From Eukaryota sp. GEM-RC1 (Eukaryota), in NCBI GenBank assembly GCA_040285855.1, contig JAUFOQ010000006.1, positions 620,001-684,000 of the forward strand: DNA of 64,000 nt, written 5' to 3'. The position numbers and the translations under genes are program-made. Of the stretch, positions 15,958 through 58,900 are shown piece by piece; position 1 is the first letter of the stretch, and every line of letters begins with the position of its first letter. Below the pieces are notes generated by a model. It had not been told where the DNA came from. It saw only the letters and a list, made by a program, of their open reading frames with translations, and ran no database searches.

Positions 15958-16136
15958 GTTTCAGATAATTCTAGTGCAAAACAGAAATGAGTGGAGGGAA
16001 ATTTAAAATGTACAATATAGAAACTCAATTAAAGATACAGGGTTGTACCATTGAACTTGAACGAAAACCAAAATATTAAAATACATACAAGGTTTTATCT
16101 ACAGTTAAAATAGTAAGGAAAAATATATATATAAAC

Positions 16137-29194: not shown

Positions 29195-29902
29195 CAGGGA
29201 TGGGAAATAATGAATTGCCAGTCCAATATTGCCAATCAATAGCAATATTTATTGATTGATCCGCTGTTTTTCAATATCAGTATATTACCAATATTGCCAA
29301 TACAATATGTCTCTAATAAAACAACAAATTTACTTTTTCTTCCCTTACATGCCTGACAACAAAGTCGTTTGTGGCGTCTTTTTAACCCTGCAGTCAACAA
29401 TTGACAGCCAGGACATCTGACAACGTGTGTGCGGAGAGATCCGAAAACGGTAAACTTGGAGTTCATTCCTGCAACTTCTGTTGAAGTGGAAAGATTATTT
29501 TCTCGCATTAGGCTTTGTACGTGCCAAAATCGATTTTGTTTATCGTCATAAAGCCTTGAGCAACAGTTATGGCTGTACTACAATTGAAGTCTTTGGAATG
29601 TGAAAACTACTGGAAGTGCTTGCCAATCCCACTGGTCTGAAGAAGATGAAATCGTTGATGAAGATGGAGTTTAGACTATTTGTTCGGAACAAATTGTTGC
29701 ATTACTTTTGTAGTATAGAAATTCGATAGGTTTTGCATTTGTTTTTTTTAAGTACTAGGAGCATGTCTTTCTTTAATTTAAGTGTATTAACCATACAACC
29801 TGTTTATTGCAATATTGGCAATGTATTGGAGCCGATACTGTATTGATTGGTGAGCTGTCTTCCGATACCAATACATTGCCAATCCAATATTTCCTATCCC
29901 TG
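29195..29902 (+). mobile_element. Non-autonomous hAT element with a transposase C-terminal dimerisation relic
   Basis: TIR CAGGGAT(G/A)GGAAATA; perfect 8-bp TSD ACTATATA; PATSVEVERLFS motif at ~29468; CCAAT repeats. Confidence 0.92.
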
Positions 29903-31315
29903 ACTATATACAAACTGTAGTATTTTTTATGTGTAGTGCTACAGCAAGGTTCCAACAATTTCAGCCATACTTGCAAAATTCCGCCACTCCCAGTAAAAAA
30001 AATACAGCAAACACACTTAATACAGAAAATGCAAAAATGCAAAATAACTCGAACTTAGTCGACTTTAATGAAAGTCAGGGTGAGAACTGTTTCTATTTAA
30101 AAGTGTCAATGACTGTAATTATATGTGTTTCACAACCAAACTAAACATAACAAAACACAAACAATACCAAAACAAATAACAGACATCGACTATTTAGTTT
30201 TCCTCTGTTCTAGTCGGCTGACATTCTAAAACACTTTCCAATCATTTTTACAGATTGAGACTCCTCAAAAACATCAAGAGGATCCATCATTAGACGAGTG
30301 TGTGATAACAATAAATTAATCAAGGGTAACTGCTTATAATTCATCTTCCAATAAAGACAAAGTTGTATATGGTATCATCATTATCATTATCAAAAACAGC
30401 TACAGAACAGTCAAAAACTCTTCTTTAAGTAGTTCCTCAAGAAGGTGATCTTGGATGATCCCTAATTTCATATACTAGTATGCAAACCAGTACTCATACC
30501 TCCATTGGTAGTTAATTACTGAGTTTCACGGAATCAATAGTGTTGCCTGTTTTCTAAAGTTGTAGTATATTAAATTGTAGGCCTAGAGACCTATCCAATG
30601 TTGTGTGTCAAGGACATTTCGGCCTTGTTGACTCTTAATGGTCAAGATACGACCAATTAGCATCTATTATGTTTCAAAAATAAGACCAACACGTAGAAAT
30701 AGAGTAAATTGATCAATACATGGTCATCAAAAGATTCCTGTAGTAGCTTTTCATTCATAAACACACAAAAAACTATCATATTATTTCAGTATAAAGAAAA
30801 ACAAAAAGCACATGAAATACAAAAATACAAAAAATACAGTATATGTATTTTCCAAGTATGATTTGAACCTCTATAAATTCAAGGATCCTCTAATTTCAAA
30901 GTCCGAACAAGGTTGAAATCGCAGGAATATCGAATTAGCTTGGCTATAATTGAGACTCCTGTTTCCAAAGAAATTCACATCTTTCGAAAAAGTGTGTTAG
31001 TAGGATGGAAAGAATTTTAATGAAAGTTATTGGATACGAAGGCTGTCATTGTCCTTCTTCAACGCATTGTTTAGGTGCTTTGATTCGATTTTCGTCTCTT
31101 TGCTTTGAAGCATGAATATAGGACAATGGAGAGGTCGTTGTATGTCCTGTTAATACTGATGATGATCTTGATTTGTATGAGTAAATTAAGGGCGTTTTTA
31201 GGAACCTTACTGTATTAATCACGTTCAATGACTAGCAAGTTAGTGAATGAATCTAATGGTAGATGATACTGAAACTATATATAGAAATTTGTCGAATTTT
31301 ATTGAACAAAGTATA

Positions 31316-37320: not shown

Positions 37321-37714
37321 TACACACTCTTCACAACAATTAGTCTGGATCAGACTAATTATGAATATTCACATTTGAACAAAAATCCCAAACAAAAATA
37401 TTTTCATTGTAGGAAGGTTAGCTTATTCGGTGCCGAATAAAAAGTACATGTATATATCTTTTCATTGATCATCAAATCTTGCTATTTCTTCGTAAATGTT
37501 ATGTTGTACATCAGGATCGTTGTTTGCACCTTAAATAGAGGTATAAGACCAAAGAAATTCAGAAACAGGACTGATCAGCTATCAAATTGCCTCTTCAAAA
37601 TTGATTAGTGACCGAATTGTCTTTCAAGGAAGTGCGAACAATGTATGACATGGATTGTTGGCAATTCAACAACAGTCTAGGAAGAAAAATGAAAGAAATG
37701 GCTGTATGACTCAT

Positions 37715-38449
37715 CAGGGATAGGAATTATTGGATTGACAATATACTGGTATTGGAAAACAGCTCACCAGTCAATTCAGTACAGGCTCCAATATATTGCC
37801 AATATTGCAATGTGTATAGATCGTACGTTAATACACTTAAATTAAATTAATTTATTTATAAATTAAGAAAGATATACTCCTAGTACTTAAAAGATATCAA
37901 ATGCAAAACGTATCTAAACATTAATGCAACAATTTATTACGAACAAATAGTCTAACCTCCATCTCCATCAACGATTTCGTCTTCTTCAGAACAGTGAAAC
38001 TGGCAAGCAATTCTAATAGTTTTCACATTCCAGAGATTTCTACTGTAGTGCAACCATAACTATTGATCACGACTTTCTGACGATAAACAAAATCGATCTT
38101 GGCCCGTACAAAGCTGAATGTGAAAAATAATCTTTCCACTTCAACAGAAGTTGCAGGAATGAACTCCAAGTTTTCCGTTTTCGGATCTCTCCGCACACAC
38201 ATATCCAGGTTTCCTAGCTGTCATTTGTTGACTGCAGGGTACAAAAGACCCCACAAACGACTGTTGTCAGGTATGTAAGGGAAGAAATAGTACATTTGGT
38301 ATTTTATTAGAGACGTACTGTATTGGTAATATTGGCAATACATTGATATTGAATAACAGAGGATCAATCAATATGTAGATTAGTAATATTAAAATTATAT
38401 TATTATTTTTGGTAATATTGGATTGGCAATTCAATATTTCCCATCTCCG
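37715..38449 (-). mobile_element. Second, inverted and diverged copy of the 29195 hAT element
   Basis: Starts CAGGGATAGGAA; the reverse complement aligns with 29195-29902, including the PATSVEVER relic at ~38135-38160. Confidence 0.8.
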
Positions 38450-39451: not shown

Positions 39452-39529
39452 TGTTGGTCTTTGGTACCATGTAAAGAGATAAAGTGAATTTATTATACAA
39501 TTAAGTCCTGATGAGTCATGACACTAACA
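39452..39529 (-). repeat. 3' LTR (78 bp)
   Basis: Identical to 45619-45696. Confidence 0.95.
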
Positions 39530-42500
39530 TTACTTCTTCCCCTTTTTCGAGGACCTAGTCCTCTTAGCAGGTGGAGTAGTGAGAATGACGGAATTAGGAG
39601 TGTTACTAGAGTTTGGGTTACGATTACGACTACTTCTAGGTTTACCTTTAGGTTTAGATTTGGGTTTGACGTGAGGGTTTAATTTAATAAAACTTGAGTA
39701 AGCCTTAGTATTCTTTACCAGACTCAGGGGTTCCTCAGTAGTATCACCATCGAACCATACGACGGAACATATGGGACCCGTAGGAGAATCACGTTGATCG
39801 AGGATCTCAGTGATGACCATTTCTTCAGAGTCAAAAGATGCCACTGCTTTGTGGAACTCGTCGGAGGAGGGTTTGTCAGAAAGGTACTTGGTGCATAAAT
39901 GAATGCTAGAGCGGAAGCGATGTCCAGTGACAAAGTTCTGCAGTTCAAGCGAGCTTTTGGAAGGTATATCAATGACGAGGTACGGTCCTTCTTGTTTGCC
40001 ATGTAGCTTCTTAGCTGCTTTGTTACTTCGTAGTACTAAGTCACCGATAGCAAATAGCGAGGGGGTATCGACTGTAGTAATGGAAGATTTGATAGATGAT
40101 TGGGTAGTTTCTGCTTCTTCCCGTTTTTTCCAAAATTCTCGTTAATTTTGATTGGTAATCAGCTAGAAATGAATCTTCTGAGATCTGGTTCTGAGTGAGG
40201 CAAGATATGATTTTACTCGGATCACTACCAGGGCTGGTGTCAGATCCAAACATCAATTCGTACGGTGTAAAGCCGGTTACTCTACTCTTCGTAGTGTTTA
40301 CCAGCAGTTGTACTAATGGGATGTTTTTACTCCAGTTGTCATAGTCATTGAAGTCTATGAGCATCTTTCGTAAAGCTTGTAGGATGTCTCTGTGTCGTCG
40401 TTCAACTAAACCGTTGCTAGGAGAGTAACTAGGAATAGATTTATTAGTTGTGATGTCAAATTGATTGCAGACGTCAGTTAAGACGTGATTAGCAAATTCT
40501 TTGCCATTGTCACTATGAATGATATCTGGAATGCCGAAGATGGCGCAAACGTTACACACCAACGAATATGCTGTTTCGTGATCATTCAGTTTCTTTAGTG
40601 GGCATAGGATTGTGAATCTGGTGAAGGAATCTATGAACACTAGTAAGTAAATGTTTCCCGATGTGTCAGTGGGAAGTGGTCCTATAGTGTCGACGTTCAT
40701 CTTTGCAAATGGTTTGTCGGACCACAAATTACCCGAAGATTTGATAGTTGTTTTGACAAGGGGAGCTGTCTTTTGACAAGCTGGACATTGCCTGCAGTGA
40801 GTTTTCATGTCGTTGATCATGCTGGGCCAGAAGTAGTCACTAGATTTTGGCCGATCAATGCTATCTTTAATGCTGGGGTGACCTGCATGTGGAAAACCGT
40901 GTAAGTGGTTCAAAGTGGTTTTCACCAAGGCACTTGGTATCAATATCTTGTTGTGGCTATTCATGTATAGCTGGAACTCTTCATTAAACCAAGTAGACGG
41001 ATGTTGGAATAATGGATCGTTATTTTTGATGGCTTCTACTTGTGTAGAGCGTACTTTCGAAAGCCAAGCATCGAGTAACTTCGATTTGTTGATGAGAGCA
41101 TCGTCAATCATGTTGATCCTCTGTTGATAAAGTTTGATATTCTGTATCCTCATCAGTAGGACATAGGCTATCGGTTATAGAGAACAAATGCTCGGGACAG
41201 TTTGTGACTATGTTGTTTATAGACCCTGTTGGTACGTCTTTGATAACGTTGCGTGACAACATGTCAGCCCAATGGTTGTCTTCGCCACTAGTGTGGACTA
41301 TAGTGAATAAGTATTCGCTGAGAATAGGGATCCATCTTTTGACCATCCTATTCTTTTCAGGTGCTGAGATTAAGTAAGCAAGGTTCTTATGATCTGTGAA
41401 GATCGTTAGTTCTCTGCTGATAAGGTATGATGACAGTTGTGATTCCGTTGAAATCAGGAGAATGGCGTACAATTCCTTTTGGATCGTGGCCCAGTTAGTC
41501 TGTGAGTAGTTTGCTGTAGAATGCTAGTGGTTCTACTTTGCGTTCGTTCAGTGGAGTTCCCTAAGGTGAGTGAGGGGGTGCATTCTAGCCAGACGACACC
41601 ACCTACGGCGATATCGCTGGCGTCTGCGCTAATCAGTATGCGTCTGTCTTTGTCTGGTTGACATAGTGGCATGTGATTCATTATCCTCTTCTTGATTTCA
41701 TCAAAATTTAATTGAGTTTGAGGTGTCCAGTGAACTGTTCGTGCATTGTTCTTTACTAAAGCTATTATGGGAGCTAGTAGGTCAGAAGCATCTGCTATGA
41801 AATCTTTGATGTAGTTGATTGAGCCGACGAAACTTCGAACTTCTTTGATGGTGGTCGGTGTTGGTATGTTTACCAAAGCTTCTACACGTTCCGAATCTAT
41901 TCGACGAGTGTTGTCGATGTATTCGCAACCTTAGATAATTATAGGATGATTCTTTGTTATGAACTTGCACTTGTGTAAGCCATGGTTGACTCTATAAAGT
42001 TGAGCTCTCTCAAGAACGAATTTTATTCTAAATAAGTATTCATCGAAAGTCTTAGCGACTGTGATGATGTCATCGATGTAAATGAATATACCTTCGTGGT
42101 CGAAAATATCCATCATCAAGTTTTGAAAGATTGCTGGTACGTTCTTTTGGCCAAAACAAGCTCGTTTAAATCGAATGGCTAGGCCGTGGATGACTAGAGT
42201 TGTCTTGTCACGTTCGTGATCCGCAGATTCAGTTGCCAAAATGCTTTTGGCAGGTTGAGAGTGGCTATGTAATTAGTTTCACTTAGAAATTCTTGTATGT
42301 CTGCGATTCTCGGTAGATTCGGTTCGACAGTCTTAGTAAGTTCATTGATTCCTCCAGTACCACTGAAGTCACCCGTAAGTCTAGGCTTACGATGATCGGG
42401 GTAGACCACAAGTACTACTGGGGAGCTGAATTTTCCGTTGGGATTAGTATACTCAGCGTATCCCAAACGGACTAGTTCATGAAAAGTTTCTTCGGCTATC

Positions 42501-45500
42501 CTTTGTTTGACAGGATTAAGCCTCCGAGGTTTTCGTTTCACCGTGGACTCTTCATCGTGGAAGTCAATTGTCATCGGTGAACAATCGATGCCATCTTTGT
42601 GTGGAACGGAATCGAAGATAGTTGAGAACTCGCTAAGTAGGTTCAGTAAACGATTGGTTCTGTCATCGTCATCTAATTTGATTGAACAGCCGGAATCATA
42701 AACAAATTTATTGAAATCTGTATTGTCTATAATAGAAGAGCTATTGGGCATAGATATGTTGGAGTCGAACTCAGACTCGTCGTTGCTATGAGCTAACATA
42801 GTTTGTTGAACTGGGATGATTAGTCCCTCTTCAGTCAGTAAACCTAACTGCTTCATGAGATCAATACCTAACAAATATTTGTTGGATCCAGGGATGCTAG
42901 GTAGAGTCTTCGTCACAGATGTTAGGTGTGACACCTTACTGAACTTGAAGGTCAAGATCCCGTGGGCGCTACCCAGTGAGTGAGATCTGACGTTGTTTGC
43001 TGATGTGAAGTGAACCTTCTTGTTGATGAAAGTCATTGAACATCTATCGACCAGGTCTTGTGTGATGACGGACATTGATGCTCCACTGTCCCATAAACCC
43101 TGAATCGAAACACCATTGATGGTCAGACTGCAACTGAGGAATGGTGGTGGATCCTGGTGATCGATAATGCTGAATATCGAATTCAGGCTTAGTGAGTTCG
43201 TACCACTCGAATTACTGATGTTGTGGAGTGGATTTGCGTATGGATTATGTGAATTCGACGATGATGTATTGTTGTGAATATGGTTTATATGTTGAACGTT
43301 ATACTTACTATATTTATTGTGTTTACGTGAACTATTACTACGAGAGGGAGGTTTCTTTGCCTCAGATCGTGGAAGGCGTTGATCAGCGGGAAGTTCACTT
43401 CTACGGCAGTCAGGGTGATTACAGTGAATGATCTTATGATCAAAAAAATCACAGAAACTGCATTTGTTGGGGTCTTTCTCAGTTGGGTCTTTCTTCTCGG
43501 ATCGGTTCTTCTTTTTGAAGGAAGGGGATGGAGAAGGAGCAACTCTTTGATCAGTTGATCAAAGTTTGTGACCGGCGGAAGTAGAGAAAGATTTGGTGGC
43601 TGATCTCTGCATAGCTTTGGGTAGGTCGTTCCATGAGTCTTTGTCTCGGTGGACTAGAATTTCAACGTCTTTCTATTCACGTTGAACATGTGCAGGGGGA
43701 GTGTTCCCATCTCTTACACCACGTGTTGTAGTGTTCGAGGGCGACGGCGAAGAACGTGTGGAGGTCCTTGGAGTCTTTGTACTTCTGGCCAGAGGGTTAG
43801 GTAAACGGAGGCGATACCGACATTCGTGAGTAGGGCTTTGATGATTACTCTTTCTTCGAGACTCGAGTAAACATTGGCCTTTGAAGTGCGCATCGGTGTA
43901 CTGCGATTTAGGATTTTGTCGAAACGTCTAATAAAAGTCCAGCCATCGGTCTTCATGGTCTCTAATGTTCCAGTTCATAACTACTTCATTGATCTTGTTC
44001 CTTGCTGTGATGTATTCTCGGAACTGTGTTCTGAGAATGATTTCAATAAAGAGGTTGCGGTGATCTTTCGTTGTTTTGCCTAGGTAGGACAATTGTTGTT
44101 GAACTCGGAAGTCTATCAAACGGGGAACCCATCTCGTGTCAGCGTCGCTGGCGGCAATACGGCCAATGTCGAAGAAAAAAGTAGCTTGACCCAAAGGTTT
44201 GTCGGTCGGTTGCTTGTAATCCGGTTGAGGTAAGCAAAAGCTCATGTAGTCTCCAATCCAATAAATCATGACGTCAGGGTCGTCAAGAGTTTTAAGGACG
44301 GGAGGAGTAATTGATTTGTTTAGCTCACTGTTGATGTCCGAAGGTAGTCTTTCATTGAATTTCAGTACCGAGTATGGTGTCTGAATTGGAGGAGGATTAT
44401 CCGACTGAGAGGGAGTGTGAGGCTGAGCTTCTGGAGATACTGAGAGGGCTCTTACCCTTTGACGGATGTTGAGGTCAGCATGGTCTCGGGGTCCAAAAGG
44501 CAATAGAGCTGGGTCTCTGGGCATTGAGTGTGGAGAAATTCCACCTGTACAATTCTCCGATATTCCACCGGGACTATAAGGAGCGTCTTCAACCAAAGGT
44601 GGAACAGTGTCCGAAGGGTTGGAGTTTATCGCAGGGATGCTGTAAGACGGAACTTCTACATCTGCGTAACTGCTGAGATCGTCTATCTGTCTTTCAATGT
44701 CTTCTACTTGTTCTTTTGAAAACGGTGTTTTCAGCAGATTGTAGGCTTGGGGTGTGGTCACTAGAGAATTTACACGGTTCTTGTCCATAATAAATCCTAA
44801 GAGTTTCCCCCTGACTGTGCAGATAGTAGCAATCTCTGGGTAGAGATTGATTCTGTTGTTGAAATACCTTTGGTAGACTCTCTTGAGCTGTTTAGCCGGT
44901 TTGAGGAGAAAACTGTCTTTCTCGTATTCAAGGTAAGTCTCACCGTTGAGACGGGCTTGTGTTCTGAACTCTTGCCATTGTACGGCGTCGAAGTTCTGAT
45001 ACATTCTGCGTTCCGCTTCATGAATTTCTTTAGCCGAGGAACTCGTGGTTAACAAACCTGGGAGATTGGGATCTGTTCCAGGCATGGTAAATCCTAGTAC
45101 CGTAGTAGGAGGCTTTGGAGCCATTTTAGGTTTGTGGGAGTTCCGTGGAATTGGCTTGGGTAACGGCGAAATTGAAGGGCTGGAGGCAGGGTTTGTCTAA
45201 GGTGTGACGGTGACAGGAGACGTTTTCTTAGGAGGAGTATTTCTATCCGCCTTTCCTGAAGAGGGAGGGTATTCGTTCTCGACGGGTGGGTCGGTGACCA
45301 CCGGGGAGTATACAACTTGGTGAATGGTTTCCTCGGGAGGATGGTCATCTTCGAAAGAGGAGTTAGCAGGAGATTCGAGACCCTCGTCGAACTCCACCGT
45401 GTCGTCCCAAGGTTTCCCGTCAGGTCCCAATTCGGTGTTTGGGGGAGGGTTATCCTTGGATGCCAGGTCGGAACTGGGCTTAGTAGTACCTAGGTCGGAA

Positions 45501-45618
45501 CTAGGGTTATGAGTCTTGCCTAGGTCGGAACTAGGGCTTGGGTTAGTGTTGTTTCCAGGAGTGAAATGCTCCGGAGTACATACGCATTGAGACTCTTTAC
45601 AGAGGCCACAATAATTAT

Positions 45619-45696
45619 TGTTGGTCTTTGGTACCATGTAAAGAGATAAAGTGAATTTATTATACAATTAAGTCCTGATGAGTCATGACACTAACA
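45619..45696 (-). repeat. 5' LTR (78 bp)
   Basis: Identical to 39452-39529. Confidence 0.95.
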
Positions 45697-46146: not shown

Positions 46147-48306
46147 TCAGCACCAGATTCGATCATTTACTTCGCTTCTCATAACAGATTGAGTTGTAGG
46201 ACTAATAACGTTACAATGAAAAGTGATTTCAGTAAGTGTAGAATTGGATTTTAGAGCTTCACTCAAGGCAATAGCACCATTATCCCCTATTGAATTTGAC
46301 TCTAGATTAATACAAGAGAGAGTCGTATTAACTTTGAACGATTCGCTCAAGGCAATGGTACCATTATCTGCTATAGAATTCTTCTCAAGATTAATATCTG
46401 AAATACTAGTATTAACTTTGAACGCTTCGCTCAAGGCAACAGCACCTCTATCACCAATACAATTGTGATTTAGATTAATCTCTGATATTTTAGTGTTCAC
46501 CTTGAACGCTTCGCTCAATGCAATGGCACCAACATCTCCAATAGAATTGTTCCCAAGATTAACTCTAGCAATTGCGGTGTTAACTTTAAACGCTTCGCTC
46601 AATGCAACGGCACCATTATCACCCATAGAATTATTCTCAAGAATAAGGTGAATTAGAGTAGAATTGAGCTTCAACATGTCAGCTAATCTCAAAACTCCTT
46701 CCACTCCAATTAAATTATTCAAAAGATTAATCCTAATAATTGTAGAATTAACAGTGAGTGCACTTGCTAATGCTGAGGCACCTTTTTTACCAATAGAGTT
46801 ATTCTGTAGGTCGAGAAAAGTAAGTGTAGAGTTAACTTTCAGTGCATTTGCAAATGCTACGGCTCCTTCTACACCAATAGAATTGGACTGCAAATCAATT
46901 TCAATAACTGAAGAATTAATTTTCAAAGCTTCTGCTAATGCTATCGCTCCTTGCGCTCCAATAGAGTTTGACTGGAGATAGATCACATCAACAGAAACAT
47001 TAACCTTCAACGCATCAGCTAACGAAACTGCACCTTCAGTACCAATAGAGGTACGTGTTAGGTCTAAAACACCAATGGTAGAATTCGATTTCAAGGCATT
47101 TGACACAGCCAGAGCACCCTCAACTCCAATAGAGTTATAGGAAATGTTAAGCTCCATCAGCGTTGAATTTGACTCTAACGCTTTAAACAATGCCACCGCA
47201 CCTTCAGCTTCAATTGAGTTAGACATTAGATTGATCTTAGTCAGGGATTCATTTACTGATAAAGCTTCTGCAAATGCTACTGCACCTGCACTTTCAATAG
47301 AACTGTTGAACAAACTAATATCAGTAATAGTTTCATTATCTTTCAACGCTTCAGCTAAAGCCACTGCTCCTTCAACGCCAATAAAGTTATACCCTAGATT
47401 GATCTTCTTAAGAGTAGAATTCCCACTCAAAGCTTCCGCTAAAGCCACTGCTCCTGCATTTGTTATAGCGTTAGCACCAAGATCAAGCTCGGTAAGACCA
47501 GTGTTGACTTTCAGTGCACCTGCTAATACAATTGTGCCTGTGTTTCCAATAGAATTTCCCAAAAGCTCAAGACAACCAACACTTGTATTGACTTTCAAAG
47601 CCTCAGCCAATGCCGTTGCTCCTTCAGTATCTATATCGTTAGTGGGAAGGCGGAGTTCTTTAAGAGTGATATTGTTCTTGAGATGTCTGCAAAAGGACTT
47701 AAAGGACGGATTGGAGGGAATCTGGACATAGAGGTGTTTAAGGTGTGGTAGATAATATGTGGAAGAGTTGCTTAGAAATTCAAAGCTCAGATAAGCTGAT
47801 TTTAATCTTAATCCTGTGATGACGTGAGAATAATTGAGAAAGTCCGTGACTGCAAAGGAATCATGTGCATCCAGGAATACAGAATGAGGTTGAGTGTCAA
47901 AGAGGGAAGCAATGGAACAAAGTCGAGGAAGATCTTTAGAAACAACTGGAAATGTACTTGTCTGGAAAAACAGTTTTACTGTCAATAAAGCGCATTCAAA
48001 GAAGGACTGGCTTACAAAGGCAACAATGTTGAAGAAGGAGCGTAGTTGATTTCGAAACTGACGAAAAGGTCTTTGAGGATCCCAGAAATTCTCTTTAAGA
48101 GATGATTCTGAAAGAGCTCTCAGTAGATGGGAATCGATCAACACTAGTAAGGATCGCTGAAAATGGATAGGATTGCAGATAGGTTCATCATTCAAGGTGT
48201 TTAATGGTGAAACTGTACGAATTGCGATGTTGGATGGCTGCTCTGTTTCTAAACTGCATTTGACTGTGTTTGCATCATTCAAAAGCTTTGAATGTTGTGG
48301 ATCCAT
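46147..48306 (-). CDS. RI-like leucine-rich repeat protein (NLRC3-like)
   Basis: ~18 28-aa repeats NSIGxxGAxALAEALKVNxxLxxLxL; intact 719-aa ORF. Confidence 0.9.
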   Translation of the reverse strand: MDPQHSKLLNDANTVKCSLETEQPSNIAIRTVSPLNTLNDEPICNPIHFQRSLLVLIDSHLLRALSESSLKENFWDPQRPFRQFRNQLRSFFNIVAFVSQSFFECALLTVKLFFQTSTFPVVSKDLPRLCSIASLFDTQPHSVFLDAHDSFAVTDFLNYSHVITGLRLKSAYLSFEFLSNSSTYYLPHLKHLYVQIPSNPSFKSFCRHLKNNITLKELRLPTNDIDTEGATALAEALKVNTSVGCLELLGNSIGNTGTIVLAGALKVNTGLTELDLGANAITNAGAVALAEALSGNSTLKKINLGYNFIGVEGAVALAEALKDNETITDISLFNSSIESAGAVAFAEALSVNESLTKINLMSNSIEAEGAVALFKALESNSTLMELNISYNSIGVEGALAVSNALKSNSTIGVLDLTRTSIGTEGAVSLADALKVNVSVDVIYLQSNSIGAQGAIALAEALKINSSVIEIDLQSNSIGVEGAVAFANALKVNSTLTFLDLQNNSIGKKGASALASALTVNSTIIRINLLNNLIGVEGVLRLADMLKLNSTLIHLILENNSMGDNGAVALSEAFKVNTAIARVNLGNNSIGDVGAIALSEAFKVNTKISEINLNHNCIGDRGAVALSEAFKVNTSISDINLEKNSIADNGTIALSESFKVNTTLSCINLESNSIGDNGAIALSEALKSNSTLTEITFHCNVISPTTQSVMRSEVNDRIWC

Positions 48307-48314
48307 TATCGGTA

Positions 48315-48476
48315 ACTGAATTTCCCCTTACTACTTAGTAGTAATCTGTGCTTTTCATATAAAATGAAAACCCCAGAATTTCTTTTATAGATTAATCCAG
48401 ACTGAATTTCCCCAATGAATCCTAAGATTCAATAATTCTACAGATTCACTGTAGTACATAAAGGCTATGACTATGA
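48315..48476 (-). ncRNA. Candidate omegaRNA-like structured region: two hairpin-hairpin-GGGGAAATTCAGT modules
   Basis: Immediately 3' of the Fanzor stop; 13-nt direct repeat at 48315-48327 and 48401-48413; four short hairpins. Confidence 0.4.
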
Positions 48477-50600
48477 CTATGACAAATAACTGGGTCTAAT
48501 TCCTAGACCCCGCTCCAAATGATGCTCCACAATTGTCTTGATGTTGATACATGCTAACTTGTTACGATTCCAAACCTTGGCGCTACCATGACATTCTTCT
48601 CTACATTCTTGGGACTTGCATCTCAACAAAGCGTGACACTTTACTAGAGGTTTCTTCTCTCTTTTCGATGGTCTTGGATTACTGATTTCTTTGAACACTT
48701 TGACTGGCCTCCAACAAGTAGGACACTTTGAAGACGTGTAACTCTCATCTACCAGAACAATATTGTAACCATTTCTCTTAAAGAAGTTTCTCCAACCCAC
48801 ACCTCTACTTGATCGGAGGTGTTTTAGGTTCTGCGTCTTATTAACATTGTCACCAAACATCAATACACAGCCATCTTTATTCCATCCTTTTGCAGTCATA
48901 TTTTTCAACAACTTACTTTCTGTTTTTTGAATATGGACATATCTTTGCATTTTTGAATGCGCCATATCATCAAACAGTAGTAGTCAAATGTTGATTCAAT
49001 AACTGTCAGTTTGGAACTCACATAGTCATAGAAGGTTTCATAAACGGTTGACTTCGAGTTTTCTTTGGATAATGTTGACTCTTCTTCTTCAACTGTCTTT
49101 CCATCTAGGAGAATAAATTCTTTTTTCTTTCCCCTTCTAAACTTTTGATGAACCCTTGACCATCTGGACCATTCTGTTTCTGTCAATCTTAGCCACTCAT
49201 ATTCTTTGTTTCTTCTTTCTCGGGCTTTTTGTTCAGGAAATGGCCTATTCACTTTCTCTGAACAAAAATAGAGTAAATCTGTTTTTCCAGGTTCAATAAA
49301 AACTTTTGTGTTCAATGAAAACTCTTCAACAACATAGTCTTGAACATATTCTTGTTTACTGGAGAACTTTGCACTGTCTGGTTTAAAGGACATTCCAACA
49401 CAGTCCTCTCTAGTAAGTTCAACACAAGCAGAGAAACCATCAGTTTTAATGGTATTGTTATACTTATAACCTTTCTTTAAAAATGGACGATTGAAGTTGA
49501 AAAAATGTGACCAGAATAAGTTTTGTTCAGCAGGAGACATGTGTTCAATTTCAACTTTTGTGTTCCACTCAGACATTTTCTTCTTGACATTCACTTGTTT
49601 TGTTGACAAAGTGGAACGTAATATTCCCCAAAGACCTTGTGTGTCTATTTCAAAGAAACCTGGTGTGACGTGACGAACAATAGGAATTACATTGTAAGCA
49701 CTTGCTCCTTCACTTTCAAGATAGTTATTTATTTGAATCGCAGATTTAATAAAGGATTGAGGATGTTCACGAACTGATGTTAGTAGAGATTTAACGACTT
49801 TCTTTTTATAAACACCATTAGCATTTTGAACATCAATTGACGGTGGGAAGAGAACATCAATAAAATATTTATCTCAAAAACAATCCTTCAACATAGTCGT
49901 TAGTTGCCCACAGAAGTTTAATTTTACCTGCAATGTTCAAACTTCTATTACTGTCGTCTTGAAGAATTTCTGTATTACATCTTTGAATAAATTGTTTTAT
50001 TTCTGCAGGGGTTTTTGGAATGTCATTTCTGTTACCTTCAAGAAAGACATTTTTAACTTGTCTAAGTCTCCAACAAAAAACAGACAGTTCTTTTTTTGAC
50101 ATTTTTTCTTCTTGATCAGTCTTTTGAAAATAAACATTAATAAATTTGTCAATTTATTGAGCATATCGCATTTAAATATTGGTGTCCAGATTCTCTTTAA
50201 TAGTTTCACCAACCATTGCCATAAGTCGTGAGGAATGACAGGCTGGAAAGAGTGGAATTCCACCATTGTTGAGCATTACTTGTTTGTATTGATTTATAAC
50301 AAATGTTCTCAAGTGTTCATTAAATGTAGGAGGTCGTCCTTGATTACATAATTCAATCTCATGATGTTCAGCAGAGATGTTTCTTAACAGAGTTTGAACA
50401 TGTTCAACTTCCTTCCTTGTATTTAAAGGTAATTTTTCACCATTCTTATCCATGTGTAATAAAAACAGCTTCAAACAATAGGAAGTGTGCATTCTAAGTT
50501 TGTGAACCAATTGAGCATAATAATCGAGTAATAACGTTAATCCAAAATGTTTGACAATAGACTTTAGTGTAGTTTTATGTGTTACAAAAGTTGGACGAAC
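48477..50600 (-). CDS. Fanzor (eukaryotic TnpB homologue, Fanzor1-like) domain of the polyprotein; RuvC-I D>E and RuvC-III D>N
   Basis: KTTLKSI...HTSYCLKLFLLH; NVIP....PGFFEIDT; IKTDGFS; IEPGKTDL; MFGD; VLVDESYTSSKCPTC; HALLRC....C; WNRNKLACINI. Two in-frame TAAs near 50150-50175 and two frameshifts. Confidence 0.88.
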
Positions 50601-50639
50601 GATTTTATTTGATTGAAACAATAAAAACAACTTCAATGC

Positions 50640-51345
50640 TAGTACACTGTCTTTGAAGCAATAGTTCCCAACTTCTTGAGGTCTTTCAACAACACAATCA
50701 ATAGGCAATAAGTCGTGAAATTCGTCATGAAGACGTCCTTTAGATTCGTTTAATAAAAACCAACTTAATGTTCTTAAAGACTTGGAACATTTTGAAACAA
50801 TAAATTGCTTAGCATAGACGTACGAATCACATACAATTCTACCAGCCCATTCAGAACAAGCATTTTGCCATAGATGAGATAGATGAGATTTAGTTGTTTC
50901 ATCTAGCATTGGTTCTGGAAAGTTGACTCCAAGTGTAACAATCCCGTTGCCTAAAACAACTACATCGAAGTCAGTTATGTTAAATCCAGTTAAAACTGAG
51001 GGATTTTTATCATTCAAATAGTTGACAAAAACTCTATTAACTGTTTTTCGTTTTCAAAAAATCGAAGGTTGCTACAATCAGGTGGCAGTTCAACATCAGA
51101 TTCATGAGTCAACTCTGAAGTTGCAACAAAATTGTCTTGAAGGTAAAACTGATCTTTTATAAAATGACCAAACACTCCAGAAATCATGAAAACTTGTTGG
51201 TTTTGAATCCACACTTCTTTTCTGCATCACTTTTCATTTTGAGAGATTTATTCTCGTTCTTTCTTTGATCATCCAACTCCTCTGTAAGTGTCTCTGCAGG
51301 GATTTGATCAATTTCTCTAGTTTCAATATCAAAAGACAATATTGA
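50640..51345 (-). CDS. Family-B DNA polymerase-type DEDDy 3'-5' exonuclease domain, in frame with the Fanzor N-terminus
   Basis: ExoI SFDIET, ExoII NPSVLTGFNITDFD and ExoIII YCFKDS; ExoII, ExoIII and the Fanzor start lie in one unbroken ORF (50172-51017). Confidence 0.82.
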
Positions 51346-51701
51346 ACAATGATTAGAGTTATTTGGTAATTGGGAATGTTTGAGAAACTCAATCATTGGT
51401 TTTTTAGGAGGTTTCAAACTCTTTATCGCATTTGATACTCCACTTGCTTTTGGTTTGGTGGTTTTCCTTTTGGCAACTGTTGACTTTCTATTTCCTGCTG
51501 CTGTTGTTGTTTCAGTGGTGTCGGATGATTCAATTGTTTCTTTTTCTGTTGTATCAGGTTTCTCACAAGCCGCAACATTTATCTTTGGAGTTGGTAAATT
51601 TATTTCTGGAAGATCTGTCAACTCTGGACGACTAAAGTTATGATAACTTTCTTGAAATAATTCTTTAGCTTCTTCCAGCGCTTGTTCAATCATTTTTAAC
51701 T

Positions 51702-53496
51702 TCAAAAGACGTTTCTTTTCCGGTTAGATAAATTTCCAGGTAAACTTTTGGGAAAGTTTTGATAAGTGAGCTTTGACACCGTTTCCTTGTAACTACTATC
51801 ATCTAACATTGTTTCAGGAGTTGAACTTTCAGATTGACACTGTACAGGTTGATTAACAGGTGATTCAATCTCATCAGAATAAAACTCACCTTGGGCATGA
51901 GTACATACATATTGTCGGTATTCATCAGGGTGATCTTCATCAGGGTGAGTAGTAACGATTTGAGACAGTATTTGTTTTCTCATTTCTAATGCATTATAAG
52001 CAACACAATTAGAGACTTTAGACAGAATTTCGAAAAGATTTGTTGATGTTGATTCACACTCGACAAATTTATTCATATACATTAGAATAAATGGACCACA
52101 GTCATTAAGTGTTTGGACTTGTTGAACTGGTACTCTGGCTATATAGCTGAAATTTGCCATATCAAACAGGAATTGCTGTAATTGTGAAATGACATTGTCA
52201 ATACGTGATAAAGTGTTAGAAAACTGAGAATGTTGATCTTCTGTACACATTGAGTCAATAGAGAAGTATTGTTTATTTTGAATATCACAAATTAACAGTG
52301 ACCAGTGAGTGGCTGTTGTATCAAAGAGACCGTCATGTATTGGAATAAACAAGAAACGTTTCTTACACTTTTTAGTGTGTCTTTTACTGGATTTTTCCAT
52401 TGATAATTGAACCTCTCTAAATTGTTCAAACATTATGTTATACTGTGAAAGATTGATTGCATCTTGAATGTTGGCTACTTCAAAGAACTCGCATCGATTA
52501 CTCTTTTCAACAATGTACTGACCAACAAAGTCAATGACAGAATCATGAAGCAGCACATTAGGTTTCAGAGTGTCAATTTGATCAGATCTTAGTAAAATTG
52601 GTCTAGGACGAGATTGTGTTAGAATTCCACGATGTTGATGTTGTATAATTTGATATTTTTGAGAAAATTTCTTCTTTTTTGGAGGATATTTTCTAGATTT
52701 ACGAGTTCTTCGTGTACGATTTGAGTCTATAAGTTGATGGGGAGTAGTCAATGGCACTTGTCGAGTTTCATCAGGAGATGAAATTACTGTTGGGGTTGAA
52801 TGTGCTTGAGTGCTGTTTGAAAAGCACTCATTGACAATACTTACAGCAAGTATAGCAAAAGGCGTAGGATGAGTAGTTCCTATTAGATTTAGAACTTGTT
52901 TTCTCATTTCAAAAGCATCATAATCGACATAACCTTGGACTTGAGACATAGTTTCCTGGAAATTGTCAGATGATGATGCCAAATGAACAAATCTTTGCAT
53001 ATACATTAAGATATATGGTCCACAGTCGTTGGGAGTTTGCTGTTTAATAACTGGGAGCTTTCCTAAATTGGAAAAATTACCAAAATCTCGCAAATATACC
53101 TGTAAAGTACTGACAACTTGATCATTGTGAGTTGAAAGGTCAAATGAAAGTTGAATTGAACTGTCAGTGTACATTGGATCAATTAAAAAAAATGACGTAC
53201 TATCAATGTCACAAACAAGTAGAGTCCAATGAGTTGCTGTACCACGAAAGACACCATCGTTTATTGGAATAAATAAAAACCTTTTCCCAGTCTCTCGCAT
53301 TGAATTTTTGAACATTTAGAAATTCAAGAGCTAATGTGTCAAAATCGCCATAACTCACTGCAGCATGAAGATTCCCGATACAGAAAAACTGGCATAACTC
53401 ACTATTCTCGGTGATGTACTCACCATAAAAGTCAACAACAGAATCATCGAGCCATACGGAGGGCTTCAATGTAGTGATTCCTTCCTGAGTGACAAA
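51702..53496 (-). CDS. Tandem Ulp1/SENP-like (C48) cysteine protease domains of the polyprotein
   Basis: WLDDSVVDFY...FIPIN...HWTLLVCD...QQTPNDCGPY, and LLHDSVIDFV...FIPIH...HWSLLICD...QTLNDCGPF; both His-Asp-Cys triads intact. Confidence 0.88.
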
Positions 53497-53739
53497 AGGA
53501 CCAGGGTTTGATTCTATGTGTCCATCGATAGTCAAATCACAGAGAAATTGTGATGACTGGAGACTTGATTGTAGAAAAACCATACAAGTGCTGACTTTAT
53601 GATCGTAAAAACAAAACAACGACTGAGACGAACTCAAGACTTTCCTTAACAACAACAAAAGAAGAAACAACATAGAATAATTCGAGAATCCATGAGGAGA
53701 AAAAGGAACGCCTCGAGAAAATATGTTCTCTTGGCACAT
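53497..53739 (-). other. Leader peptide MCQENIFSRGV-hydrophobic-2A-like motif (DLTIDGHIESNPG|P)
   Basis: Matches D(V/I)ExNPGP except His for Asp; lies directly before the first Ulp1 domain. Confidence 0.7.
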
Positions 53740-53899
53740 CCTTAAACACGTGATCGTGTTTGGTTGATGAAAAGAAGAAGGAGAGAGATCTCAGGACACA
53801 AGTATCCATAGACATCTCTCCAAGCAATTGGACTCAAATATAAATTCAGACTATTTATAGATGTTGTCTACAGTGACATCTTGACATACTGAAACTGAC

Positions 53900-54012
53900 A
53901 ACATATGTAACAACAACATTTAATAGTACAACATTTAATAGTACAACATTTGTTACAACAACATTTGGTGACACAACATTTGTTACAACAACATTTGGTG
54001 ATACAACATTAG
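53900..54012. repeat. 15-bp tandem repeat (ACAACATTTGTTACA-like), ~7 copies, upstream of the polyprotein gene
   Basis: Read directly; a TATA-like CTATAAATA lies on the minus strand at ~53852-53860. Confidence 0.75.
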
Positions 54013-54475
54013 TTGAAAACTATAAGATACAAAGTATACATGATTTATGAAAGTATTTATAATTTATCAACTACTAGTACCATCTCAAGAAAACAACTCT
54101 TATGCTCCCAATAATAAATTGTGAATATATTCTTTCAAAGATTTAATAATGCAGATAATTACATTGACTTGTCAAGTGTTTATATTGATAGATTCTCTTT
54201 AGACGACTAGTATCAATTAAGTCAACTGTATTTTCTTTAATCTTTTGAGTTTCTTTTATTGTAACAAATATGACCTTTTGTGCGAAAAAATCTATATAAA
54301 TAAAAAGAACAAAAAATAAAAAAACGGAAGAGAATGTATTCGAGAAAGCAAAGAGTAACATCTAGATGTAGGAACAGAAGTAGAGCCCACACGTGTCTTC
54401 GTATCTTAAGGTTATAGTATTGGTTCAGCAGAGCGATGACGGTCCAAGGTTTTGAGGATGGAGCGCCTTCGACGT

Positions 54476-56987
54476 TATATCTTTACTCTGTTGACTCTAG
54501 TAAAATAGCGTCCACACTTATCATAGAACTCTAGAAAAAGTTCCTGGACCTGTGCTCTGTATGGAGTCAAAACAGCCACTGTCACTTTTCTATCCAACAA
54601 TTGCTCCATCTGTGATTTGTGATTTTTTTACAAAATTAGTAACTTGTTCCACAATGGCATTACATTCAGCCTTATTCAATAGACTCCCTGAAAGTTCGGC
54701 AGAAGACTTGTGATGAGAGCCAATAGTACTCACAAATTGTCTCCCTGGCAAATGTGAAGTGACCTTTGTAGGGTTCAATGGTACTAATTTTGTCATCATA
54801 AAATTGGGTATCAGAAAAATTCCACAATTCTGAAAATTGTCGATATTGTGGATTAAGCTGAGTATACCTGTTATTGTCTATCATTGCAGAGGTCAGTCTT
54901 TCCATAAGAGAAATCGACAATTTTGAATTCTTACTGATTACCACTGGTGGTAATTGTTGGGGATCTCCAACAATCACGACTGAAGTTTCGTCGCTTTTTA
55001 AAGCAGATACAATTTCTGGTTCAGTTGCTTGAGCAGCTTCATCTATGATAGGGACACTTGTAGGAAAAATCTTTTCTTGTCTGTCTGTATCCACTTGCAA
55101 GAGCTAATGTAGTAAAAACAACATCAAATTCATTCTTAATCTAACTCAAGTCGAGCTTTTCTTCTTTTCATCAGCAGTGATAGCACTGACAGATTCAACC
55201 GTTTCAGCATCAGGATTCAAGGCTTGTCCAAAAAATTCATCAACTGATTGTGGAACACGAGATAGATTGTGACCGATAGCGTTTTTTCTTTGTTTCTCAT
55301 TTTCAATTGCATCTCTGTCTTTCTTTTCTTCAATTCTTTTTGGCAGTAGAAATTCTTGAATTGATGGAGGCGGATCTCGATTCTGAGCACTGATACGGAG
55401 TAGCTTGTTTCTATCAATGTTGGGTTCATTTGACAGCTTCTCAAGAATGACTTCAACGGCATTATTTGAAGGTGCCGCAACCCATACTGGACGTTTATCA
55501 GCGATTAATGACATAATTAGTTTCACAATTGTCATTGTTTTACCAGTACCAGATCCACCATGTATGAAATACAATCCTGGTCTAGAAACGTGTAACTCTC
55601 TAATTCTTCCAACTGAGTGTCTTTGTGAATTATTCAAATTTTTGAAAATTTCTGGTGAACCTGGTGTAAGATTCGCTTCACATGGAGAAATTGGATCTGA
55701 TGATCCAGCAATGTTCAATTGATATTGAAACCGAGGAGGAACTTTCAAATCTAACATGGCTGAAATTTGACGTAAGAAATTGCTGCCAGAACCAACTTTA
55801 ACTGGAACTTCAAACGTTTAAATTTAAATTCAATAATGCAAAAACAAGTTATCTGAAGACCCAACATTTTCACAAGGACGTGCTTTTGAAAACTCTGCTG
55901 CAAAAGATATTTGAACTAATACTTCATACATTGGCAGATTTAGTTCATGAATTGTATTCAAAAAAGTTTCAAAACTACTGATATTGTCGCGAAATGATGG
56001 ATTTTTAACTCTATCAGCCAAAATAAGACGAATTTTGGTCAAATATCCATGTTTGTGTTGCCGTGAAGGTTGTAAAGAGTATTCCATGAAGCATTCCTGT
56101 TTATCAATGTTGTTCAGACCAAGACAACAGTTTGCAACCGTTTCATCTAAGAGTTTATTGATCCACTCAACTGAATATTCATTTGGAATTGCAGTGTGAT
56201 AAAGCTCACTAATGAATTCCTTCTTTTGATCGTCAGGCAATTGAATTTGGTGTCTAATATTTTCAGAATTTTCCTTGACAATAGCCCAAAATTTGAACAT
56301 ATATGGCACATATAAACTATTCACAGATGGTTTTTTGTCTCTGAGAGGGGCTTGTTGAGAAGATGGTTCAATCTGAAAGAAATTTTGGCCAAAAATATAA
56401 GAAGAACCAGAATCAATGTTTTTCGAGGCAAAAACATCGATAGCAATTCTAATCTATCAGTTTCAAGAAAATCGTTGAGTTGGTTTTCAGACCAAAAAGG
56501 TACTACTTTGCGCTGACTCATTCGATCTTTTTGCAGTAAGGGATTAGGTGTTTCAGATAGGAAAGGTCTGTTATGGTCGGCGAGATCAGGCAAGTCTTGT
56601 GGTGGGGCACTAACTTCATATTCTGCTGTTGGTGGTTCATTCTTGTGAACCTCTTTAATCTGATTAGTGGCCCAGGTTTTTCCTTCTGATACTGATTTAA
56701 CCCTGTTATGTCTAAGCTTTCCTATAACATAGTCAGCTTTAAACGATGTTCGATTATGGTTTTTGTACCAATATGTTTTATTTTCGACATCTACTAAGAA
56801 AAAAAAGAACAATATCAGGTTTGCGGGGACCAGGGTTGGCTTCGATATCACCATGCTGAGTAAGATCATGTGCAAAAGGTTGTGCTGATGAAAGAAGAGA
56901 AAAAATGAAGGAGATGGAAGGAAAGATAAAGAAGTTTGGGAAAAGCCAAGACACAACGCCTCGAGAAAATATGTTCTCTTGGCATTG
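54476..56987 (-). pseudogene. 2A-leader plus Upf1/DNA2-like SF1B helicase gene, frameshifted, C-terminal motifs V/VI not evident
   Basis: Canonical 2A DLTQHGDIEANPG|P (56826-56870); LNNSQ; GGSGTGKT; AAPSNNAV; IIDEAAQATE; VGDPQQLPP; QYR; N.AE; VLTPYRAQ. Confidence 0.82.
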
Positions 56988-57239
56988 GTCTGAAGAACTG
57001 ATGTTCTTTGTGAGACTAAAAAGGGCAAGTGGAGTAGTAGCATATGATGAAATGAAATGGCGCTTTTTTATGGTGGAGTACCATTTGCATAATTTCGAGT
57101 GTTGATTTCTTCCATCAATCAACAACTAAGAAGACGTTTCTATGTAGCGATTTTTGATTAATCATGTCAGTAATGATCATGATATTGTTGAGTTTTATGG
57201 ATATTTTGAGAAAATAGTTATGTTTCTCTTATATATATA

Positions 57240-57844
57240 GTAGGTGTCCCAATACAAGCAAAGTTCCAATACAAGCAAGGCCCCAATACAAGCAAGTAAA
57301 AGTGTTTGCTTGTATTATTCTATTGCATTCGGGATGTTGAGCGGGTTATACTTCAATACAAAGTTTGTTAAGGTGAATTACGACGTATGGAGCTGTGGAC
57401 GAACTTCATAGTGTCCAATTAAGTGCCTAAATGTTGTTGCGGATTTTTACCCGAAGAACTCCATGGAGTTATTGTATTGTTTGGCATTTATAAAATCAGA
57501 AGCACAAAATGGCGTTTTAAAACCAAATTATGGAACATTAGGCAATAGAATCCCTGTCATTAGAACTTTGCTCCTATAAGACAAATATTGTGTACTTGTA
57601 GAACAAATTAAAATACTGTTATTAAAGCATGTGTCATAGTGTGTTGTTATAAATTTTTGTTCTATTTAGAATACAGTGTACAAGTAGCATTACGAATTAG
57701 AGTATGTGATCCTGTAATATATTGAAAATAAAGGTGTCGTCGCTTCACCGTATAATAGGGTCCCAATACATGCAAGGTCCCAATACAAGCAAGAAAATGT
57801 GTTTGCTTGTATAAGATATAAAGTTGCTTGTATTGGGACACCTA
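57240..57844. mobile_element. MITE with 22-bp TIRs (Tc1/mariner-pogo-like, in TA-rich context)
   Basis: GTAGGTGTCCCAATACAAGCAA ... TTGCTTGTATTGGGACACCTAC; internal CCAATACAAGCAA repeats. Confidence 0.85.
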
Positions 57845-57988
57845 CGATATTCGCATATCAAAGTGATGTGTCAAATCAGTGCCATTTCAAGATTAAGATT
57901 GTATAAGAGTTCTCCTTACGTTTCCCACAGTGCAGTGTTTTAGTATTTTTTCACACGTTTCTTCCAACTTAGAAGTGACGCTTGACCT

Positions 57989-58900
57989 ATGAATTTTCGC
58001 CAAGCGGGACAAGCTGTTCCACAACGATTCTTCTTCAAACCTCGTTTCAGCACTACAAAGGACTCCCAGCCTCCTCCTTTCGGATCTTCATCACCCCGAT
58101 TCTCTTCCATAACTCAAAAACATCAGTATGATCTTGGTCCTGGAAGCTATGTAGCTGGTAACATATCAAATCCATCGTTTTCTGAAAAAGGATATGGTGC
58201 TCTCTGCAGTCGTACTAAACGCTTTCGACGTGCTCCAAAATCCGCTGCACCTGTCTTACAATCTCATACTTCTCCTTCATCTCCCAAATACTCAAAACCT
58301 TCACCATGGTCATACCAACCTTCTACATCTCGTCTCATACCCCCTGACGATTCAGCACCTCCTGACTTCTACAACACGTCAACTTCCTCTGCAGTTCCTT
58401 TCCTAGCCTCCATCTCCTTCAAATCATCTTCCTCCCGATCTTCTCTTGTTCCTAGAGATGCTCCTGACCTTCCTGGTCCTTTTGATTACTACTCTACTGA
58501 TTCTTCTACCACACAGACCAAAAGTCCAAGGACATCGTTCTTCTTTGCGAAACCTGTTGAGAAACCACAAAACAAAGGCATATTTCCTATTGGTACTAAG
58601 CCACGATCCAGTCCTGGTCCTGGTGACTATGACGTTCCCAATTCAATCAAAATCTCTAAAGTTAGTCGACCGTCTCCTTGTTTTCAAAGTTCAGTGAAGA
58701 AACCAGACACAAACAAAACAGTCAATGATGTTGAACCTATTGTTGACTTGAATCCAGATAAACCATCTCGGAATGTCCCTTCTTGTACACACGTGTTTAA
58801 GAAGTCTGATACAAAACCAAGAAGGAAGATTTCGACGTTTATTCCAGGACCTGCAATGTATCAACCCACCCCTCTTTCTAAAAAAATCATTTCTAATTAA
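57989..58900 (+). CDS. SHIPPO/PGP-repeat (ODF3/STPG-like) axonemal protein
   Basis: Repeated LGPGSY, PGPFDY, PGPGDY and PGPAMY motifs. Confidence 0.75.
   Translation: MNFRQAGQAVPQRFFFKPRFSTTKDSQPPPFGSSSPRFSSITQKHQYDLGPGSYVAGNISNPSFSEKGYGALCSRTKRFRRAPKSAAPVLQSHTSPSSPKYSKPSPWSYQPSTSRLIPPDDSAPPDFYNTSTSSAVPFLASISFKSSSSRSSLVPRDAPDLPGPFDYYSTDSSTTQTKSPRTSFFFAKPVEKPQNKGIFPIGTKPRSSPGPGDYDVPNSIKISKVSRPSPCFQSSVKKPDTNKTVNDVEPIVDLNPDKPSRNVPSCTHVFKKSDTKPRRKISTFIPGPAMYQPTPLSKKIISN

Follow-up and report, generated by a model that had tools for sequence, protein, structure and literature searches.

A predicted two-hairpin leader and 2A motifs at a decayed Fanzor1 polyprotein gene and a helicase gene of Eukaryota sp. 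GEM-RC1

Two genes behind one repeated leader

We analyzed 64,000 nucleotides of DNA from Eukaryota sp. GEM-RC1 (assembly GCA_040285855.1, contig JAUFOQ010000006.1, positions 620,001 to 684,000; this whole stretch is the window, and coordinates are its own). On the minus strand it carries a decayed Fanzor1 polyprotein gene (gene 1) and a UPF1-like helicase gene (gene 2), each headed by the same 30-nt sequence (the 30-mer) and a 2A motif. 2A recoding has been described for RNA viruses and retroelements, and in sea urchins 2A is found behind signal-like leaders or signal peptides.

The identity of the two 30-mers, which the original prediction had reported, was confirmed: at up to three mismatches the window contains two matches, at 53707-53736 and 56955-56984, as compared to 0 in 100 shuffles, and the fold first drawn for the repeat was reproduced. 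However, the flanks proved to be related rather than unrelated as had been claimed. The copies match without gaps over 67 nt (73%), with a second hairpin closed by an ATCA loop at equal offset, and the ungapped alignment of the two leaders spans 79 columns. The distance from the 30-mer to the 2A motif is 87-168 nt in the two exact copies. Neither the exact 30-mer nor its 26-nt core matched anything in the metagenome and viral contigs searched. The two leaders comprise the following features.

53707..53736, minus strand: invariant tip of hairpin 2, copy 1 (30 nt: 4-bp stem, 2x2 internal loop, 5-bp stem, 6-nt loop)
53703..53743, minus strand: hairpin 2 of copy 1 in full, including a basal stem particular to this copy (RNAfold)
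53744..53761, minus strand: hairpin 1 of copy 1 (7 bp, ATCA loop)
53539..53702, minus strand: U-rich spacer from hairpin to 2A, copy 1 (46% T; extra base at about 53695 as compared to relatives)
53497..53538, minus strand: 2A motif of gene 1, DLTIDGHIESNPGP, with a D-to-H change (core at 53497-53520)
56955..56984, minus strand: invariant tip of hairpin 2, copy 2 (30 nt); the ATG of MPREHIFSRR starts one base upstream
56950..56990, minus strand: hairpin 2 of copy 2 in full; its basal stem differs from that of copy 1
56993..57008, minus strand: hairpin 1 of copy 2 (6 bp, ATCA loop); three pairs differ from copy 1 on both sides
56826..56867, minus strand: 2A motif of gene 2, DLTQHGDIEANPGP, with a canonical core (at 56826-56849)
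53813..53815, minus strand: ATG in the 2A frame in relatives (MSMDT/MFMDT), the likely start of copy-1-type genes
53898..54014, strand unassigned: tandem array with a 15-nt unit, upstream of leader 1 and perhaps subterminal

In hairpin 1, three of six pairs are changed on both sides, and 0 of 16 pairs are broken between the copies, while slid controls were 41-63% paired. ATCA sites that close a stem of at least 6 bp are rare in the window (4/1080), and two of the four are the leader hairpins, at equal offset. The basal stem of hairpin 2 is lengthened by different bases in each copy, and an alternation between methionine and valine codons corresponds to A-U versus G-U at one stem pair. Thus, by sequence comparison, the conserved unit is a predicted two-hairpin structure of about 60 nt with the 30-mer as its fixed tip, and these changes support the view that the structure is real and under selection.

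Downstream of leader 1, Pfam analysis of 48 open reading frames (ORFs) assigned the pieces between 53739 and 48477 to one broken ORF, with a 2A motif followed by two Ulp1/C48 domains, a PolB exonuclease, and a TnpB-type C terminus. The original prediction had overlooked that this gene is a Fanzor1 polyprotein.

51960..53496, ends approximate, minus strand: two Ulp1/C48 SUMO-protease-like domains (PF02902, E 1.4e-20, two stretches)
50640..51340, ends approximate, minus strand: PolB-type DEDDy 3'-5' exonuclease (PF03104, E 8.9e-6; ExoI-III motifs; fold)
48477..50640, minus strand: Fanzor1 nuclease part, with frameshifts and in-frame TAA at 50172 and 50154
48314..48476, minus strand: structured 3' region, candidate omega-RNA and right end (short hairpins, z -2.2)
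54480..56825, minus strand: gene 2, UPF1/IGHMBP2-like superfamily 1 helicase (PF13086, E 1.9e-17 and 5.4e-15; PDB matches SMUBP-2 and UPF1)

The Ulp1 region retains the His and Q..DCG motifs, has one frameshift at about 53307, and is 91-93% identical to GEM-RC1 proteins. The exonuclease domain is also frameshifted, and in the nuclease part the RuvC-I aspartate is replaced by glutamate (EPG), with the RuvC-III asparagine as in the rest of the clade. The 3' region contains a hairpin plus a 12-13-nt motif in two copies 86 nt apart, which may mark nested right ends or two omega-RNA boundaries, and stops a few bases short of the ATG at which a host LRR gene starts. The window is rich in indels: the host genes for a PH-LRR protein and a kinase shift frame without an intron, and host genes, like several of the element breaks, also break at base runs. 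Reading frames are thus not to be taken at face value. Attributing all frameshifts to read errors was nevertheless rejected in part, because the two in-frame TAA codons and the two substitutions in active motifs, D-to-H in 2A and D-to-E in RuvC-I, represent real decay. On this sequence evidence, the Fanzor copy in the window is a decayed one.

Gene 2 has several frameshifts and is truncated, stopping short before the last helicase motifs. Among 1365 candidates with lengths of 392-2000 aa, no long relative was found at E 1e-12. An Atlas search gave no usable match for 55833-56453, and the helicase core matched generic AAA_11 clusters. We suppose that gene 2, which bears the same tag as gene 1, is a partner module or a derivative one. 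The earlier proposal that both genes belong to one modular system agrees with our data, as one leader-2A tag stands on both Fanzor and helicase cargos. Just upstream of leader 2, at 57241-57846, lies an element resembling a miniature inverted-repeat transposable element, whose inverted arms are 27 nt and whose subterminal repeats are 17 nt long.

A Fanzor1 family with 2A motifs in Skoliomonas

A search with the nuclease part returned five proteins, all labelled Eukaryota sp. GEM-RC1 (82%) or TZLM3-RCL, and their clusters hold 22 proteins; two cluster members, P0065 and P0069, are unrelated to the family and were excluded from the counts. The labels denote Skoliomonas, a group of free-living metamonads; repeats make up 28-55% of their nanopore assemblies (PMC11316075). 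Of the candidates for DNA loci of the Fanzor relatives, 78 viral and 88 metagenomic, none was confirmed.

The long members are collinear with gene 1. Single ORFs show the orders 2A-Ulp1-exonuclease-Fanzor (P0009, P0016), 2A-exonuclease-Fanzor (P0068), and Ulp1-like-2A-exonuclease-Fanzor (P0231, P0228). In a quick tree that did not include the window copy, the 13 Skoliomonas rows out of 55 formed one group with a Shimodaira-Hasegawa-like approximate likelihood ratio support of 100. The closest solved proteins by sequence are PpFz1 and SpuFz1 (E 5e-43 and 9e-41), and a model of P0002 with a predicted local distance difference test score of 88 had PpFz, SpuFz, and GtFz as its top seven PDB fold matches (E 3e-29 to 4e-18), while also matching PolB exonuclease domains. 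Most relatives carry the RuvC-I motif DPG, one subfamily DLG. The RuvC-II glutamate precedes a C4 zinc finger (E..TS..CP.C) in 9/9 rows and also in the window. The RuvC-III residue is asparagine in all 33 parsable Skoliomonas proteins, compared with aspartate in 112 of 117 others. A nuclease-dead Fanzor, suggested by this RN motif, was dropped because GtFz1 has asparagine there and is active, and SpuFz1 D606N is more active (PMC11423790). Sequence and modeled fold together place the nuclease in Fanzor1.

The family shares with Fanzor1 (PpFz1, SpuFz1/Spu-1, GtFz1) the fold, the sequence, the DPG motif, and the C4 finger, the rearranged RuvC-II glutamate six residues before that finger, the D-E-N triad as in active GtFz1 (PMC11423790), a structured region between stop codon and flank, and the lack of its own transposase, which Spu-1 elements also lack (PMC10432273). 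It differs in size, as most Fz1 proteins have 600-700 aa (PMC11423790) and Skoliomonas members reach 1200-1600 aa or more. It also differs in combining a PolB-type exonuclease, zero to two Ulp1 domains, and 2A in one ORF, in its tandem hairpin leader, and in that no terminal inverted repeat (TIR) was found. As to Mutator or Mutator-like elements (MULE), the window contains no TIR, and a MULE transposase occurs in one gene model only, P0063 of TZLM3-RCL, where leader-2A-Ulp1 is joined mid-linker to a MULE-SWIM transposase (PF10551, E 7.6e-17), maybe by nested insertion. P0063 is a candidate autonomous partner or else a gene-model join.

The leaders of the relatives are repetitive. Five GEM-RC1 proteins carry (M/V)PREHIFSRR in 4, 3, 3, 3, and 1 units in frame with an intact 2A, spaced by 31 or 35 aa, the last unit lying 67 codons ahead of 2A, while in three other GEM-RC1 proteins the same 2A-Ulp1 gene is preceded by a repeated leader of another kind. 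Members from TZLM1-RC carry a third repeat of about 30 residues, read at the protein level. For TZLM3-RCL, the leader DNA was deduced from two gene models in different frames (16 compatible sequences), assuming that both loci are identical there. It comprises two units that share a 17-nt tip, and their 6-bp basal stems differ at three of six pairs, on both sides. These units have no fixed start codon and fold better as sense strand (-8.2 versus -5.7 and -6.5 versus -5.1 kcal/mol). The pattern is thus the same as in the window, a fixed tip and an exchanged basal stem, in another sequence. A CRISPR-like repeat-spacer array was rejected, because the two spacers are not unique to a locus but recur, both inside one locus and from one locus to another.

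Three further observations concern single gene models. In P0030 (GEM-RC1), the leader meets unrelated upstream sequence at the hairpin loop at residues 60-70, and HIFSRR is present without PRE. P0021 (TZLM3-RCL) is a 2027-aa model in which a DEAH helicase (Pfam) is fused with exonuclease-Fanzor and which may be a join. P0025 and P0062 (TZLM3-RCL) contain a DEAH-like fragment recognized by eye and may be joins as well.

Both 2A motifs proposed for the window were found on the minus strand; however, only the core of copy 2 is canonical, as copy 1 has histidine at a position where all eight GEM-RC1 relatives with a 2A have aspartate. None of the D12 substitutions retained activity in P2A or F2A, while E14H was the sole tolerated change at E14 in P2A (bioRxiv 10.64898/2026.09.24.754024). 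Thus, the gene 1 2A of the window copy is predicted to be inactive. Histidine at the E14 place is the commonest 2A variant in Skoliomonas proteins.

A 2A-like motif is present in 33 of 95 fetched Skoliomonas-labelled proteins, a set enriched through a 2A-containing query, and 22 of the 33 have the canonical D(V/I)ExNPGP core. By genome, the counts are 19/52 for TZLM3-RCL, 8/24 for GEM-RC1, and 6/19 for TZLM1-RC, and many of the proteins without 2A are downstream fragments. None of the 147 further Fanzor matches listed has a 2A. Its placement varies: it stands before Ulp1, directly before exonuclease-Fanzor (P0068), or after an Ulp1-like end (P0231). The Skoliomonas Fanzor clade has many copies in three genomes, and the occurrence of 2A in all three supports it as a real trait of the clade, as judged from protein sequences.

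The 2A of the family resembles the DLTxDGDVExNPGP type of RNA viruses, with a near-identical 14-residue 2A in four IMG/VR loci; the three of these that were scanned encode picorna-like capsid, RNA helicase, or RNA-dependent RNA polymerase (RdRp) domains. In contrast to these, the motif occurs here in genomic DNA elements without RdRp, and the 30-mer is absent from the IMG/VR loci (best 18/30). A totivirus origin of the 2A was considered but not adopted: P0038 and P0040 have tandem 2As without a Pfam match, and picorna-like contigs also contain a 2A of this type.

Readings of the hairpin leader

With moderate confidence, we propose that the 30-mer forms the unvarying tip of the predicted two-hairpin structure, which heads multi-copy Fanzor1 genes and serves as a binding signal in RNA, and that 2A cuts off the leader peptide. 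The Fanzor family is likely to be mobile. A trans-acting factor would read the hairpin tip, because the tip is identical at 30/30 positions in diverged leaders, the stems exchange pairs, and other subfamilies have other tips. The signal would act on the sense single strand, most probably RNA. Translation would begin in or before the hairpin array, with ribosomes making a junk peptide of variable length that is released by 2A, which would give the enzyme a constant N terminus at any array length. Leader-2A and cargo would be shuffled, with one leader on two cargos in the window and two leaders on one cargo in GEM-RC1.

Several points weigh against this proposal. The shuffle control for pair changes was uninformative with two copies (60/500), and the strand asymmetry in the window is small (-22.7 versus -21.8 and -25.8 versus -24.1 kcal/mol), the folding z-scores coming from stretches picked after the fold was seen. 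The leader is represented by two DNA copies; the other leaders were deduced from predicted proteins, which may contain gene-model joins and reveal only in-frame units. The leader-helicase fusion rests on one locus, the long relatives having not been found, and in P0228 and P0231 the 2A has no leader directly ahead. Apart from the enrichment of the protein set, similar 2A cores are often inactive in reporters: among the supplement rows listed, skipping is seen for some (ATEWLRDLTKDGDVESNPGP) but is absent for many, and the sole DLTVDGD peptide among them is non-skipping (PMC13405545). Last, neither a binding factor, a transposase, or a reverse transcriptase nor a TIR linking the element ends was found in the element.

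The main alternative, which we consider possible though somewhat unlikely, is that the hairpins act as signals in single-stranded DNA close to the left end and are bound in trans by a HUH-type transposase in the style of Helitron2 or IS200/IS605, with tandem units and leader swaps arising from re-used origins and 2A merely tidying translation. Fanzor1 borne on Helitron2 (CRe-1, 2, 3) indeed has hairpins at both ends with compensatory changes and variable 5' ends (PMC3627910). Moreover, hairpins are found at the 3' end here too, the antisense strand folds almost equally well, the P0030 leader joins foreign sequence at a hairpin loop, and helicases are associated (window; P0021, P0025, P0062). 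However, in the window, P0031, P0050, and P0054, the first hairpin is preceded by at least 20 shared codons and thus is not terminal. In addition, the leader and the 3' end have no inverted match, asymmetric inverted repeats and RepHel in cis were not found, the HUH domain is absent from all proteins scanned, and the helicases are UPF1-like and DEAH rather than PIF1. The available text of the Helitron2-Fanzor paper has no mention of a protease, an exonuclease, or 2A (PMC3627910).

The RNA-signal proposal can be taken further, into a scheme that we put forward tentatively and regard as unlikely, of a multipartite mobile system in which separate 2A-headed modules share a co-evolving RNA hairpin tag, recognized by one factor, and are copied or packaged together like virus segments, Fanzor spreading via RNA and the fused exonuclease trimming its own cuts. 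The modules would be Fanzor-exonuclease-protease and the UPF1-like and DEAH helicases.

The original prediction, by which a start-codon hairpin controls a conserved peptide and a hydrophobic signal released by 2A, now appears improbable. It read the 30-mer as CQENIFSRGV in frame with 2A, which is true of both genes as assembled but does not correspond to the frame of the family, as five relatives read (M/V)PREHIFSRR and QENIFSR is present in 0/217 proteins. The stretch between the His codon of the hairpin and the Gly of 2A measures 201 nt in five relatives but 202 and 121 nt in the window copies. Copy 1 has a single extra base at 53695 relative to two relatives, and copy 2 shows the same 3n+1 offset. 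A supposed ATG-TGC start fails in copy 2, where the CQENIF frame contains no ATG and the ATG opens MPREHIFSRR. Similarly, no TG was lost from copy 2, since the copies align without gaps and fit the relatives' D-(M/V)-P, in which M and V alternate.

Part of the start-codon idea stands: when read in the frame of the relatives, hairpin 2 has an AUG or GUG at its 5' base, both in copy 2 (where it is the first in-frame AUG) and in some of the relatives' units. However, copy-1-type loci have an in-frame ATG about 26 codons upstream of the hairpin, followed by up to four consecutive hairpins, and thus an array of binding sites fits better than a single start-codon switch; the absence of a fixed start codon from the TZLM3-RCL units also argues against it. 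The membrane or secretion leader did not hold up either. In copy 1, peak hydropathy is 2.16 and 1.89 in the other frames compared with 1.52 in the 2A frame, and in P0032, P0035, P0036, P0228, and P0231 it is 0.45-0.77, which is not hydrophobic. The stretch ahead of 2A is 46-47% T, and its hydrophobicity is explained by this U-richness. Thus, the hairpin is likely to be a recognition signal in RNA and not a peptide leader. A splice-acceptor (gene-trap) leader was rejected as well, on a weak test: a pyrimidine tract and AG are present, but the AG positions differ between the copies, and the one host intron seen in the window is 29 nt long and has no such tract. This intron lies in an aminotransferase gene at about 17410-17440 (plus strand), with a branch-point-like motif near its 3' AG.

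Among known systems, the closest working analogy for the hairpin leader would be Pr77 with the N-terminal 2A of L1Tc/ingi, where a short structured 5' tag on unlike members is likewise followed by an in-frame 2A (PMC5814959). Here, in contrast, the tag is in tandem and the cargo is Fanzor or helicase. Membership in L1Tc/ingi fails, as the element ORFs and the relatives scanned showed neither a reverse transcriptase nor an AP endonuclease. The parallel raises the idea that the two-hairpin unit is part of an uncatalogued self-cleaving ribozyme, similar to L1TcRz, that frees element RNA from host transcripts, which we find quite improbable. Its location 5' of 2A as in L1Tc (PMC5814959) and the invariant loops on exchanged stems would fit. 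However, the hepatitis delta virus (HDV)-like ribozyme of the L1Tc/ingi 5' signature was not found in the leaders with Rfam or descriptors: Rfam gave no ribozyme at E <=5 over 47500-58000, and HDV and hammerhead descriptors, used without a positive control, gave 0 matches on both strands of both leaders. Furthermore, the tips are wholly different between subfamilies, unlike a catalytic core. The exact identity of the 30-mer and its sharp edge on the 3' side might suggest a scar without function, left by a target duplication or a short tract of gene conversion. This is highly improbable, being largely refuted by the covariation in the adjoining stems and opposed by tandem copies at five other loci and the parallel pattern in another genome.

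A search of the mostly open-access literature, which did not include Repbase, found no Fanzor with 2A, Ulp1, or a fused exonuclease and no Skoliomonas elements. In their available portions, PMC10530073 has 0 mentions of exonuclease, PMC13405545 has 0 mentions of Fanzor or metamonad and 0 Skoliomonas labels in four supplements, and PMC10711439 and PMC12846837 likewise contain no such Fanzor. The 2A-processed Fanzor1 family with a shared hairpin tag is thus apparently undescribed, although the supplements of the September 2026 bioRxiv 2A survey could list the motifs. If our proposal is true, a 2A-processed Fanzor1 polyprotein clade would extend StopGo to RNA-guided DNA elements, the natural fusion of a nuclease with a proofreading-type exonuclease would be relevant to Fanzor self-spread and to editing tools, and the covarying, family-specific tag on unlike genes would provide a handle for finding the mobilizing factor.

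Other elements in the window

The window also contains a Ty3/gypsy-like long terminal repeat element at 39452-45696 (minus strand), with 78-bp terminal repeats that are 100% identical and a frameshifted pol. A long ORF with a 78-bp tandem array lies at 19048-24776 (plus strand) and has an inverted paralog of about 90% identity at 11971-15959 (minus strand), with no clear Pfam family. Further dispersed repeats of 80-90% identity are found at 29199-29903 and 37714-38445, and at 6627-6804, 9992-10389, and 25757-25887.

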